A stretch of 64,000 bases of DNA from a virus: positions 1 to 64,000 of IMG/VR virus record IMGVR_UViG_3300017730_000002. One strand, given 5' to 3'. The first letter of the stretch is position 1; every line of letters starts with the position of its first letter. Shown here one piece after another: positions 41,688 through 45,348 of the stretch. The position numbers and the translations under genes were made by a program. The notes under the pieces were generated by a model. The model ran no database searches and was not told the DNA's origin. It saw nothing but the letters and a program-made list of their open reading frames with translations.

Positions 41688-42374
41688 ACTATAAGATAAC
41701 AATATCTGCGGACATTCCCAAGTGTAATGGATCTACGGAGGTAGAAATGTTCTATGCAAGACATTGTAGTGACTCTTGTATCAGATGGCCCCCACCACCT
41801 ACCACCCTGTTGGTACCCCCCTATGATTTGTACAGGAGAATGTGTTTTTGCTGACACAAAACCAAAAAAGCATGCTGCTGAGAAAAGTTTAGCAGGGTTG
41901 TGCAAGGTGCAAGACACAGTGGTGCTTTGTGTTGTGTAGTTTCTTTTTGTTTAGTTTGTAGATTATCCTCTGTCACATGGATTAAGTTCCATAACAAGAT
42001 AAGACTGTAAAGTCCAGTATAAAGCAAACTCCTAAGCCCTACAAGTTGAAATCATATACACTTGAGGGCTTTCTTTTTTTTTAGTTTGTAAAGTTTTATA
42101 CTATTCAAAGAAACAATCACCTTGTGTGCACAAGTGGGTGGACAGCATTGTTGAGAAGAGTATATGTAATTAGGGACAATGTACAGTAAGGTACATCCCT
42201 TTCTTTTTTTTTAGTTCTGAGGTGCAATGCAAACCTCCCGCTAAAGCACTTAGCCTTTAACACACACATAAGGGGAGGAACATTCTCAGACGTGAGAGAA
42301 AACAATGGTTAAGGCCCATTGTTTTTTTTGTGTTGTTTCTTTTTTTTTAGTGTTGAACTTTTAAAACCCATACT

Positions 42375-42548
42375 ATGAAAAATACTAAAGTTCAAATCTT
42401 TTCTGTTCCTTGTAATGAGGCTGAAGCCATTACTGCGGTTCAGAAAAAGATTAATCAGTGGCTTACCACTGGCTTATTAATCAAATATGAAATGCACACT
42501 ACTGCTACTCATATTGTGTTTAATGTTGCATTGAGAAAAGAGGCTTAG
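42375..42548 (+). CDS. Early mini-protein (57 aa)
   Basis: Manual translation MKNTKVQIFSVPCNEAEAITAVQKKINQW..; TACT-ATG start; stop lies inside a hairpin. Confidence 0.7.
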   Translation: MKNTKVQIFSVPCNEAEAITAVQKKINQWLTTGLLIKYEMHTTATHIVFNVALRKEA

Positions 42549-42727
42549 GCCTCTTTTGTTTCTTTTTTTTTATTAACTAAGTAGTGTAACACCTTAAAAC
42601 GATTATATCCTTGATGTGCTAGTGTGCATAACCACACAGGTTTATTAGAAGTCCTTAAAAGTAGCGGAGGAGGTGGCACTACTTTTTTCCTTTATTTCTT
42701 TTTTTTTAGTTAGGAAAATTATATACT

Positions 42728-42868
42728 ATGAGAAAGAAACATTTGATACCCGTTGTTTGGTTTAGTGTAATTATCCTAATTGCAACACTATTATGTTCCT
42801 GTGGATCAGGAAAAGTTAGCTGTGATGCATATGGTTCAATTGATAACACTGAAATAGATAAGGCTTAA
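42728..42868 (+). CDS. Small lipoprotein (46 aa)
   Basis: MRKKHLIPVVWFSVIILIATLLCSCGSGKVSCDAYG..; signal peptide plus lipobox. Confidence 0.7.
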   Translation: MRKKHLIPVVWFSVIILIATLLCSCGSGKVSCDAYGSIDNTEIDKA

Positions 42869-42906
42869 CAGCCTTTTCTTTTTTTTTAATTAATAAAATT
42901 AAAAAT

Positions 42907-42993
42907 ATGAAAACAGTTGGATTAGATACGTTTACTACAGTAATACTAATGACATACTTTGTATGTGGTTTAATAGTTGGTTTATGCAGTTAG
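42907..42993 (+). CDS. Hydrophobic mini-protein (28 aa)
   Basis: MKTVGLDTFTTVILMTYFVCGLIVGLCS*; occupies one complete cassette. Confidence 0.5.
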   Translation: MKTVGLDTFTTVILMTYFVCGLIVGLCS

Positions 42994-43046
42994 GGGCTCT
43001 CGCCCCTTTCTTTTTTTTTAATTGGGAAATTTTAAAATATAATACT

Positions 43047-43394
43047 ATGAATGAAGAAAAATTTATTGATGTAAATGGTTTCCAAGTTATGGACTTAGCT
43101 CCTGATATGCAAAGAAAGTTAGCTTTAGTTGATTTAGATGTGTTAGTTGAGATAACAAACTCACTTCAGAAAGTTAACTCTCGTATAATTAAGCAAGATT
43201 TAATTGCAGAACTTCAATCTGTAACTAATAATGGAGAACTAACGCGAATGCAACAGTTGCTGTATATTTGTGAAAAGTTTGTTACACTTCACAAGACTGT
43301 TTTGAAAATTCAAAATATTGAGCATCCTTTAAATGAAAAAGCAGTAGCTGACCTTAATCCAATTAAAGGTAAAGACATTAGTGACATAAGTTAG
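43047..43394 (+). CDS. Early hypothetical protein
   Basis: ORF track; start corrected to MNEEK (TACT-ATG). Confidence 0.7.
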   Translation: MNEEKFIDVNGFQVMDLAPDMQRKLALVDLDVLVEITNSLQKVNSRIIKQDLIAELQSVTNNGELTRMQQLLYICEKFVTLHKTVLKIQNIEHPLNEKAVADLNPIKGKDISDIS

Positions 43395-43447
43395 TGTATA
43401 GCCCCTTCGGGGGCTTCTTTTTTTTTATTTGTGAAAACTTAATTACT

Positions 43448-43810
43448 ATGGAAGAAGAATTTAAAATGGTTTGTACTGCCTCTAAAGGCAGTTATGGCAC
43501 AGGGTTTGAAGACGTGTTTGATAACATTGAAGACCTTAAGAGAGCAATTGTAAAACACGAGTGTAATCCTTGGGATGAAGAAGACAACACTTATACAGAA
43601 GATAAGTATACTGATGAACTGTTTAAGGAGGTTTGCAAAGCAAAAGATTATACTGTTGTTATTGTAAAACTTCACTCATCAGAAAAGATATCATTTGATG
43701 AGTATGACGGGACATCATCTCCTTATATTGAGAAGATAGACCCTCAGTTTAAATCTGTAATGGAATATGCAACAGAAAGACATTGGGACTTATTGAACTC
43801 AAAGGAGTAG
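43448..43810 (+). CDS. Early acidic hypothetical protein
   Basis: ORF track; start corrected to MEEEF (TACT-ATG). Confidence 0.7.
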   Translation: MEEEFKMVCTASKGSYGTGFEDVFDNIEDLKRAIVKHECNPWDEEDNTYTEDKYTDELFKEVCKAKDYTVVIVKLHSSEKISFDEYDGTSSPYIEKIDPQFKSVMEYATERHWDLLNSKE

Positions 43811-43928
43811 CATTTCATAGTGCAGGGGGTAGTTCCCTTGCACTTTGTTTTGTGTATATACCACAATTTTTTTGCAAAAAATTGCATCTTCCTTTTTTCT
43901 TTTTTCTTAATTATGAAATTTATTTATT

Positions 43929-44345
43929 ATGAAACATCAGAATTATTATTACAATTACAATTTTGCAACCAAGCAAGAAGGCTTGAGTTCATTAGACTTT
44001 GAAGAGTGTCTTAAGCAATGCACATTAGTTGCAGGTAACATAATGGCATTAGACCAATTTAATGCTATCGTACCTGTAGATGAATCCCAATGTGTGGACA
44101 TTCCTACTGCAACTGCCACTGCAAATGGCAATGGCACTTTCAGAGTACCTACCTATCCTATTGAGTTATTGGGAGACTTTACCGTAATAGAAAGAGAGTT
44201 TGACCATAGACCTTGGTTTAAATGTTGGGTAGGCAAGGGTGGATATACAATAGGGGAAAGAAATGTCAATAAAGGCTGTTTCTCTATAGTTGAAACTCAT
44301 AAAGGCTTTGTGCTGTATTTGGGACAAAGATACAGACAGTACTAA
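43929..44345 (+). CDS. Early hypothetical protein
   Basis: ORF track; occupies one cassette. Confidence 0.7.
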   Translation: MKHQNYYYNYNFATKQEGLSSLDFEECLKQCTLVAGNIMALDQFNAIVPVDESQCVDIPTATATANGNGTFRVPTYPIELLGDFTVIEREFDHRPWFKCWVGKGGYTIGERNVNKGCFSIVETHKGFVLYLGQRYRQY

Positions 44346-44519
44346 TATTTCATAGTGTGGGGTGTAATAGCCCTGCACTATAAATAGGTTGTCCCGTTGG
44401 GGCATAGGGCTATTGCTGTACACATATGTGGGTAATCACAATTTCTTTCAGAAATTGCATCTTTTCAGTTTCTTTTTTTTTATTTAGGAGTTTATTTATT
44501 AATTAATATATGATTTCAT

Positions 44520-44939
44520 ATGAAACTTAAATTTGAGTTTAAAGCAGATGTCTATAACGGCATCACAAGACAAGTAGCAAATTTTACAGGTACATTAGTA
44601 TCTATTGCTAAATTACCAATCAAGAATGTCAATAACACAGAGTATTACCCTGCAACTGTTGATATGAAAGATTCTCACGGGAATGTTCGTAAAGGTACAT
44701 CTTGTATGATTTACAAAACATCCTTTGACAAAGGTATGGAGATAGGACAAGACTATCTTGGCTCCGTTACCATTGAATCAGGTAAACAACCACTTATTAA
44801 GCTTACTTCAGGTACAGGCAATGGCACTCGTGCTACTATGGACGACTTTGACTTCCAAGTTGCTCCTGCACCACAACCTGTTGCACAACCTACTCAGGCT
44901 ACTACAGCCACAGAGAGTAACCTAAGTGACATAGGATAG
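44520..44939 (+). CDS. Early protein, possible OB-fold
   Basis: Beta-rich core with a Pro/Gln-rich, acidic tail. Confidence 0.55.
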   Translation: MKLKFEFKADVYNGITRQVANFTGTLVSIAKLPIKNVNNTEYYPATVDMKDSHGNVRKGTSCMIYKTSFDKGMEIGQDYLGSVTIESGKQPLIKLTSGTGNGTRATMDDFDFQVAPAPQPVAQPTQATTATESNLSDIG

Positions 44940-45348
44940 GACAATAACACTCTGCACAGCAATGTGTGGAGTGTCCTTTCAGGCTTCGCCTATCTTATTT
45001 GTTTCTTTTTATTTAGTTGTTAGTGTTCCACGTAACAATAAATAAAGTAATTATGGTCGTAAGGCATAGTATGTCCCTAAATGGTCATAAGAATACTTAA
45101 CATTGTTGGAACACAGATAGAATTGCGGAAATACTTATGTGTCTTAATCTGTTTTAGATAGTAAAACTATACCCTATATCATTGGTTGTATATTAATATC
45201 ATAATTATTCTATAGTATATAGTATTATAATATTTTATATAGCTAACTTTTTCATAATAGGTTAAGTAATAATAGTTGTTTTCTTATATATAGGATTAGT
45301 ATACTCTCTATATAGAAGATAAGATACATAGTATCCCGCATTTAGATT

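Follow-up and report, generated by a model that had tools for sequence, protein, structure and literature searches.

What is the short T-rich sequence that recurs, unit after unit, at the head of the early region of a crAss-like phage genome, and does it end, start or join the small cassettes that it separates? We addressed this question in IMG/VR record IMGVR_UViG_3300017730_000002 (109,286 bp in total, estimated completeness 93%, G+C content 32.6%), bases 1-64,000 of which make up the stretch analyzed here, referred to as the window. An initial annotation of the window had described a cassette array in which each unit opens with a conserved motif, and had read this motif as an early promoter of a phage RNA polymerase (RNAP), starting at its A, that makes each cassette an autonomous transcription unit, and possibly as a homology joint for swapping anti-host cassettes. 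We find that the array is present and confined, that its anatomy is as described, and that the motif is the breakpoint of cassette exchange; features of the sequence make a promoter function probable, and the polymerase that would use it is a more tentative matter.

The phage is Crassvirales-like, as it encodes both a crAss-type major capsid protein (Crass_capsid family, Pfam, E = 5.8e-32; portal and terminase are also crAss-type) and a giant protein carrying a DFDxD motif. The closest capsid from a cultured phage is only 27.5% identical, which indicates an environmental crAss-like lineage, probably a marine one because one homologue of the cassette P protein (Table 1) stems from Tara Oceans. 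Minus-strand genes (structural and cargo) extend from 41702 downward, across the contig ends, to 76047, and plus-strand genes span 41938 to 75836; the plus-strand block thus opens with the array.

The 14-mer TTTCTTTTTTTTTA is present in eight exact copies and four with one mismatch between 41940 and 45015, all on the plus strand, which bears out the estimate of about 12 copies in 3 kb. The pattern TTTC-T7-N(0-2)-A matches ten times in the window against 0.63 expected, a number reached by no shuffle, and at up to two mismatches the 14-mer matches 36 times against 8.65 expected. When the whole genome was searched at no more than one mismatch, 12 of the 15 matches fell within 41940-45015, all on the plus strand, and three elsewhere. 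A 26-nt weight matrix scored the 12 sites at 21-34 bits and the best other site in the genome, on either strand, at 15 bits; as the matrix was made from the same 12 sites, this shows only the absence of further copies. The motif is therefore not equally frequent genome-wide, and the expected confinement to the early region holds, with all 12 copies lying in 3.1 kb of a single strand of a 109-kb genome.

Conservation is not limited to the T-run but reaches 8-12 nt beyond it, giving an extended block TTTC-T9-A-nTT-nnK-A that is followed by A-rich sequence; past the T-run, T at +3 and A at +8 are found in all 12 copies. Seven copies precede miniature open reading frames (ORFs) of 57, 46, 28, 115, 120, 138 and 139 aa, and five head units that have no ORF. 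Six of the seven genes have their ATG 19-27 nt from the motif and the other has it at 38 nt, four start codons share TACT-ATG as previously noted, and the mini-gene leaders carry no Shine-Dalgarno sequences. Terminator-like sites number 15 in the region against 3.0 expected, a five-fold excess, and most adjoin the motif; the GC hairpins noted earlier, which abut the motif or hold a stop codon, were confirmed. A GC hairpin followed at once by the U-tract, as in an intrinsic terminator, directly precedes or includes copies 2, 3, 5, 7, 8 and 9. Copies 4, 5 and 6 are placed after a hairpin that already has its own T-run, and at 42322/42336 and 42683/42695 a complete hairpin and T-run is followed by a separate full copy of the motif, as had been pointed out. 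Copies 10 and 11 follow a separate module, consisting of a palindrome and CATCTT, that also stands ahead of cassettes X, O and P in relatives, and copy 1, at 41940, has neither an upstream hairpin nor an upstream plus-strand gene.

The strongest result comes from comparison with relatives. A scan of metagenomes for motif pairs spaced 105-135 nt listed 80 loci, among which only L131, L157, L169 and L171 were relatives of the array by blastn (75-98% nucleotide identity), and these four short contigs make up the close-relative set. They were cut at their motif copies, and the unit bodies were compared to assign cassettes. The resulting orders are A B C D E H I L M N P Q in the window genome (G000), D F G H I L N P Q in L171, A C D F H J L M X P Q in L157, Z A C D H K L X O P Q in L169, and A C D in L131, and they require at least ten independent events of gain, loss or replacement among the five genomes. 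At every cassette difference from the four relatives, homology switches inside the 14-mer. Cassette B, for example, is missing from L131, L157 and L169 with the joint within the motif; the unit after D is E, F or H depending on the genome, with F and G (L171), F (L157) or nothing (L169) in place of E; and I is exchanged for J in L157 or K in L169. Cassette H has an identical leader in four genomes, yet four different units lie upstream of it; L is preceded by I, J or K, whose terminator hairpins all differ, and P by N, X or O. Among junction pairs compared without gaps over 40 nt on each side of the motif, 28 were homologous on one side only, a few of these being artefacts of 1-nt indels, and 14 on both sides. 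A joint inside the motif should make variant bases follow the adjoining cassettes, and they do: G or A at position 10 moves with downstream cassette A or Q, and C at position 1 moves with the upstream hairpin. In L157 a degenerate second motif between A and C remains as a scar. These comparisons show the motif to be the site at which cassettes are deleted, inserted and exchanged between relatives, and the suggestion of a homology joint is strongly supported, since every gain, loss and replacement in the four relatives breaks inside it. Because the genome encodes no integrase, general recombination or annealing between repeats is the simplest mechanism and is likely the one by which exchange proceeds.

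On balance, we favor an explanation in which the boundaries are composite terminators and promoters that double as recombination joints and, more tentatively, are used by the virion polymerase. The early region would be a hyperplastic one built of self-contained cassettes, each consisting of the motif, an A/U-rich leader of 20-30 nt, a mini-ORF or a small structured RNA, and a GC hairpin. As the anatomy shows, the first bases of the motif finish the U-tract of the upstream cassette's intrinsic terminator; the motif together with A-nTT-nnK-A would form the promoter and initiation region of the downstream cassette. With a promoter at each boundary, each cassette would be transcribed on its own; in this respect the autonomous transcription units of the initial annotation remain a proposal, one favored by the dense terminators, the near-constant distance to the ATG, the invariant leader of cassette L and the positional analogues in other lineages described below. 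As a perfect direct repeat, the motif is in addition the place at which recombination deletes, inserts and exchanges cassettes between related phages, as the comparison shows.

The closest known system is the promoter-early stem-loop (PeSL) cassette of T4-like phages (Arbiol et al. 2010, PMC2839356; Comeau et al. 2014, PMC4122927), which the array matches in architecture and in evolutionary behavior but not in the use of sigma-70 elements. In both systems a hyperplastic early region contains many copies of a small composite terminator/promoter motif, which has a stem-loop terminator immediately next to it and flanks small ORFan genes (here 12 copies in 3.1 kb and seven mini-ORFs without family matches); in both, close relatives differ by insertions, deletions and replacements whose end points fall in the motif (here at least ten events in five genomes). 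In contrast to PeSLs, the array belongs to a crAss-like lineage, its motif is a 14-nt T-rich block without sigma-70 −35 and −10 elements, about half of its cassettes are non-coding RNAs, the motif sequence has been replaced wholesale between sister lineages, and the polymerase may be an injected virion enzyme.

That last difference raises the question of which polymerase would read the motif. It could be a promoter for the host RNAP, unmodified or redirected by a small phage factor; the T-run would then be an UP-like element, TA-n-TT would be a variant −7 box, and the virion polymerase would play no part. The PeSLs of T4-like phages do use host sigma-70, intrinsic terminators belong to host polymerases, and the palindrome CAATTT-n7-AAATTG before copies 10 and 11 resembles an operator on double-stranded DNA. 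The sigma-A consensus of Bacteroidota is TTTG at −33 and TAnnTTTG at −7, spaced 19-21 bp apart. The motif's TA-n-TT-nn-K resembles this −7 box superficially, but no shared −33 element lies upstream, and neither a −33 nor a −35 element could be common to the copies because the sequences upstream of the motif are unrelated hairpins. Sigma-70-like sites are not enriched in the array (35 against 36.6 expected), and none lies on the motif.

Related lineages argue further against the host enzyme. In distant relatives (capsid 88-89% identical, portal and terminase 74-80%), the head of the early region keeps the same layout of terminator, motif, leader of about 25 nt and ATG, with a different motif. 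The sequence (A/T)TACAGCTTnnTACT occurs after terminators in six copies in G005, five in G014 and two in G012, and tCCCTcTTTT-kCTArCCCTT (the CTArCCCTT type) occurs, also after terminators, in three copies each in G003, G004 and G016. The three types are mutually exclusive, none being present in the other lineages, and the T-rich motif was not found in capsid relatives of 88-97% identity; three partial contigs end at or barely within the array. All four complete genomes, on the other hand, share a motif TTnGTATATT upstream of structural genes on the structural strand (9, 9, 16 and 7 copies), a candidate late promoter that resembles the Bacteroidota −7 box in that it contains TAnnTT. Three unrelated early motifs and one shared late motif, among phages with capsids 88-89% identical, are hard to reconcile with a single host sigma factor, and we consider a host promoter rather unlikely.

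If the favored explanation holds, the polymerase would most likely be an injected DFDxD virion RNAP rather than the host enzyme. This is its least certain step, which we regard as possible, short of probable. The only RNAP candidate in the genome is one of several giant ORFs, a minus-strand ORF of 4572 aa at 81906-95624 (locus L198) that contains VAKSGSDFDIDKL; the context VAKSGxDFDxDKL is conserved in four genomes, with DYDVD in G012, and the ORF region has a weak tblastn match (E = 3e-5) to the annotated RNAP of the crAss-like IAS virus. A search of the genome for a phage sigma factor gave no match; one for a T7-like RNAP gave none either, but control genomes also matched nowhere, so that this search is uninformative. 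No other large protein has diverged as far between lineages as the DFDxD protein (31-38% overall identity). Core identity is 52% for the CTArCCCTT-type pair G003 and G004 and 57% for the TACAGCTT-type pair G005 and G012, compared with 38-41.5% between motif types. Motif type thus appears to track the DFDxD clade, which is weak support, as promoter-polymerase co-evolution and shared ancestry alone would both give this pattern. More tentatively still, the T-rich motif, TACAGCTTnnTACT and CTArCCCTT might all be promoters of a crAss-type injected two-barrel RNAP, promoter and polymerase co-diverging fast and each lineage spreading its own promoter through a recombining cassette pool. As a side observation, the C-terminal part of the 4572-aa ORF contains an AlkB-like 2OG-Fe(II) oxygenase domain (residues 3222-3389, E = 2e-17) and a weak ART-PolyVal match, which suggests that the putative virion polymerase is fused to modules of the polyvalent-protein type.

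Two systems with injected polymerases offer comparisons. The N4 virion RNAP uses three promoters with a 5-7-bp stem and a 3-nt loop. Like N4, the present phage would have early genes served by an injected giant RNAP (here a candidate), with hairpins directly upstream of the candidate start, and some boundaries, in this phage and in G005-type relatives, have a 3-4-bp stem, a TTC loop and (A)TCTT before the motif. Most hairpins here, however, are mutually unrelated in sequence and size and travel with the upstream cassette as terminators do, and the crAss-type polymerase is a two-barrel DFDxD enzyme and not a T7-like one. The nearer comparison is the crAss-like Cellulophaga phage phi14:2, in which the virion polymerase gp66 transcribes the early genes in a rifampicin-resistant manner and the first early genes are separated by abundant, highly expressed non-coding RNAs (Drobysheva et al., bioRxiv 10.1101/2020.03.07.982082). 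In vitro, the phi14:2 polymerase transcribes denatured (single-stranded) DNA. Long ORF-free gaps are seen in the early region of the phi14:2 record, a likeness to the non-coding stretches described here; the two phages differ in that phi14:2 has no repeated boundary motif. The literature, with phi14:2 as its one experimental study, offers no known early promoter motif for a crAss-like virion RNAP, and the T-rich motif is the best candidate so far in this phage group.

Several points weigh against the favored explanation. Early transcripts have been mapped in a single crAss-like phage, phi14:2, and no motif common to their upstream regions was found (bioRxiv 10.1101/2020.03.07.982082); when we checked its early region for an analogous array, the first 9 kb had one terminator-like site and no repeated boundary motif. 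The 4572-aa ORF had no RNAP match by phmmer against PDB nor in Pfam, and its candidacy comes from the DFDxD context and the weak tblastn match. The link between motif type and polymerase clade involves about three clades and is confounded by phylogeny. A virion-RNAP promoter starting at the A, as initially suggested, therefore stays a proposal: the non-host consensus, the lineage-specific motifs, the clade tracking and the pairing of the 5' A in the fold of unit A (see below) speak for it, and the phylogenetic confounding against it. Identity among the copies could be maintained by recombination without any sequence-specific protein, and a hairpin followed by T6-9 and A also occurs at plain terminators elsewhere, at 75856-75892 (plus strand) and 23131-23099 (minus strand), so that the motif is in part ordinary terminator sequence.

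These last points lead to the proposal that the motif amounts to no more than the U-tract of very efficient terminators, at which recombination or replication slippage is frequent, the array being served by one upstream promoter with partial read-through. Between seven and nine of the 12 copies directly adjoin a GC hairpin, a hairpin with T9A likewise closes the plus-strand block and the capsid gene, and recombination alone could homogenize the repeats. We nevertheless argue that the motif has a second function, because full copies are found behind terminators that are already complete and at places that have none (five copies are apart from a hairpin or lack one), because the conserved block continues past the T-run into the downstream cassette, and because the distance to the start codon is nearly fixed. 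In cassette L, moreover, the 44 nt of motif, leader and ATG are 100% identical in four genomes despite coding sequences of only 71-75% identity, and distant relatives keep the layout with unrelated motifs that are not T-rich and follow complete terminators. Ten strong terminators in series would also leave almost no read-through to distal genes. A mere U-tract is accordingly an improbable account of the motif.

It is very doubtful that the motif acts instead on RNA, within a polycistronic transcript, as a U-rich translational enhancer (binding ribosomal protein S1 or forming a standby site) or as an RNase processing site. The short, constant distance to the start codon and the leaders devoid of Shine-Dalgarno sequences would suit such a role, but 5 of the 12 copies head ORF-less units, with terminators upstream of it the motif would seldom be transcribed from there, and the analogues in relatives, not being T-rich, are ill suited to S1 binding. 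Scarcely credible is a site-specific system of the integron or transposon type with the motif as its recombination site, for which the arrayed, hairpin-closed cassettes might speak, since the genome has no tyrosine recombinase (no PF00589 match), the hairpins are unrelated simple GC stems unlike attC, and the joints, with one degenerate scar in L157, resemble simple homologous exchanges.

One clade here offers three short candidate promoters with matching polymerase variants, and with three such sharp candidates promoter specificity becomes testable in vitro on synthetic DNA. The shuffling of promoter/terminator-bounded cassettes that is known from T4-like phages is seen here to extend to an unrelated, ecologically abundant phage group, and it covers small non-coding RNAs as well as mini-genes. 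Such shuffling explains the turnover of the early genes, which presumably serve host takeover, in phages whose capsids remain about 90% identical.

Table 1. Features of the early cassette array and examples of the candidate late motif (window coordinates).
Feature	Position	Strand	Remarks
Motif copy 1 (TTTCTTTTTGTTTA)	41940..41953	+	heads non-coding cassette A; G variant accompanies A in all 4 genomes with A
Cassette A, non-coding, about 115 nt, no ORF	41954..42069	+	ends in hairpin 42034-42069
Motif copy 2, exact	42070..42083	+	
Cassette B, non-coding	42084..42199	+	ends in hairpin 42173-42199; this genome only
Motif copy 3, exact	42200..42213	+	
Cassette C, non-coding	42214..42335	+	hairpin and T8 at 42295-42329; orthologues in L131, L157, L169
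Motif copy 4, exact	42336..42349	+	GTGTTG between preceding hairpin/T-run and copy
Cassette D ORF, 57 aa	42375..42548	+	stop codon in loop of hairpin 42536-42557
Motif copy 5, exact	42559..42572	+	
Cassette E, non-coding	42573..42694	+	hairpin 42657-42686; this genome only
Motif copy 6, exact	42695..42708	+	
Cassette H ORF, 46 aa	42728..42868	+	N-terminal signal peptide and Cys (lipoprotein-like); stop in loop of hairpin 42860-42875
Motif copy 7, exact	42875..42888	+	
Cassette I ORF, 28 aa, hydrophobic	42907..42993	+	then hairpin 42992-43007
Motif copy 8, exact	43007..43020	+	
Cassette L ORF, 115 aa	43047..43394	+	then hairpin 43400-43415
Motif copy 9 (CTTCTTTTTTTTTA)	43414..43427	+	variant C is part of the cassette L hairpin
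Cassette M ORF, 120 aa	43448..43810	+	then terminator hairpin 43819-43844; missing in L171, L169
Extra upstream module, palindrome CAATTT-n7-AAATTG then CATCTT	43862..43890	+	
Motif copy 10 (TTTCTTTTTTCTTA)	43896..43909	+	
Cassette N ORF, 138 aa	43929..44345	+	then hairpin 44354-44379; unrelated ORF X instead in L157, L169
Palindrome-plus-CATCTT module, second copy	44437..44463	+	
Motif copy 11, exact	44469..44482	+	
Cassette P ORF, 139 aa	44520..44939	+	then hairpin 44947-44974
Motif copy 12 (TTTCTTTTTATTTA)	45002..45015	+	heads 1.4-kb ORF-less stretch; A variant kept in 4 genomes
TTnGTATATT examples (candidate late promoter motif)	12126, 14457, 18921, 20307, 26137, 33826, 34664, 35693	−	intergenic

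None of the seven mini-proteins encoded by the cassettes had a PHROG, Pfam or PADLOC match. Cassette P is predicted to encode an all-beta, OB-fold-like domain and a disordered tail ending in a conserved NLSDIG (AlphaFold2 predicted local distance difference test score, 64), and its weak Foldseek matches are mostly to single-stranded DNA-binding protein (SSB), RPA and PriB, as is a weak Atlas lead (SSB). An early SSB, if cassette P is one, would be notable beside a polymerase class that transcribes denatured DNA in phi14:2.

The ORF-less units (A, B, C and E here; Z, F and G in relatives) are mutually dissimilar, and the idea that they are paralogues of each other was rejected; an Rfam scan of 41-49 kb gave one sub-threshold match only, unrelated to the array. 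Unit A, kept in four genomes, has fold z-scores of −3.0 to −3.9, and the consensus fold of its four orthologues comprises 36 pairs with one compensatory change, one wobble change and no broken pairs. The structure opens at the motif's terminal A, its first paired base, and closes in the terminator, which, for four sequences, is suggestive of a transcript that starts at the motif and extends to the following hairpin. Downstream of copy 12, window positions 45016-46431 contain no ORF of at least 45 aa and possibly correspond to a long early non-coding RNA as in phi14:2. In L171 this stretch carries insertions of 123, 72 and 500 nt that have no T-rich motif at their borders.

Other searches bear on the distribution of the array. 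Among cultured and deposited phages, none matched the region by megablast, and IMG/VR scans seeded with the cassette P protein found nothing. Another 14 of the metagenome loci were read and set aside, a dozen being one AT-rich family and two unrelated, and an IMG/VR scan for double motifs returned two unrelated matches, a 14-nt tandem repeat and a giant-virus contig. The latter (GVMAG-S-1041355-65, locus L010, reverse strand 2393-3015) carries the identical 14-mer six times on one strand at a spacing of 45-168 nt, probably by convergence in AT-rich intergenic DNA.

Further elements were observed around the array. The divergent intergenic region holds a GC-rich island at 41780-41830 (GGTACCCC at 41812) in this 32% G+C genome, and this island is kept at the head of the early region in G003 and G004 (there as the palindrome GGGGTACCCC) and in G008, G012, G014, G016, L131 and L169. 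Its presence is independent of the type of early motif in the lineage, and it may serve as a first-entry promoter, a packaging site or an origin. Beside the strand switch, a 293-aa signal-peptide protein (40821-41702, minus strand) is missing from L131, where homology restarts at 41735, and variability thus reaches across the switch. A mini-gene array of a second kind is present roughly 7 kb inside the early region (G003 610-1290, locus L091; G005, reverse complement, 1284-2850), with five or six copies of a near-identical stop-to-start junction, TAACC-TTTAAATCAGAATAGA-ATG, without hairpins. Finally, a recurrent upstream element, consisting of a hairpin or TTGCAT, then ATCTT and AATTATTTATTTA, is found in the window at 47665-47721, 49620-49676 and 50085-50195 (the last including an (ATTT)n run at 50152-50180) and at the first early genes of G008, and may represent a third class of promoter.

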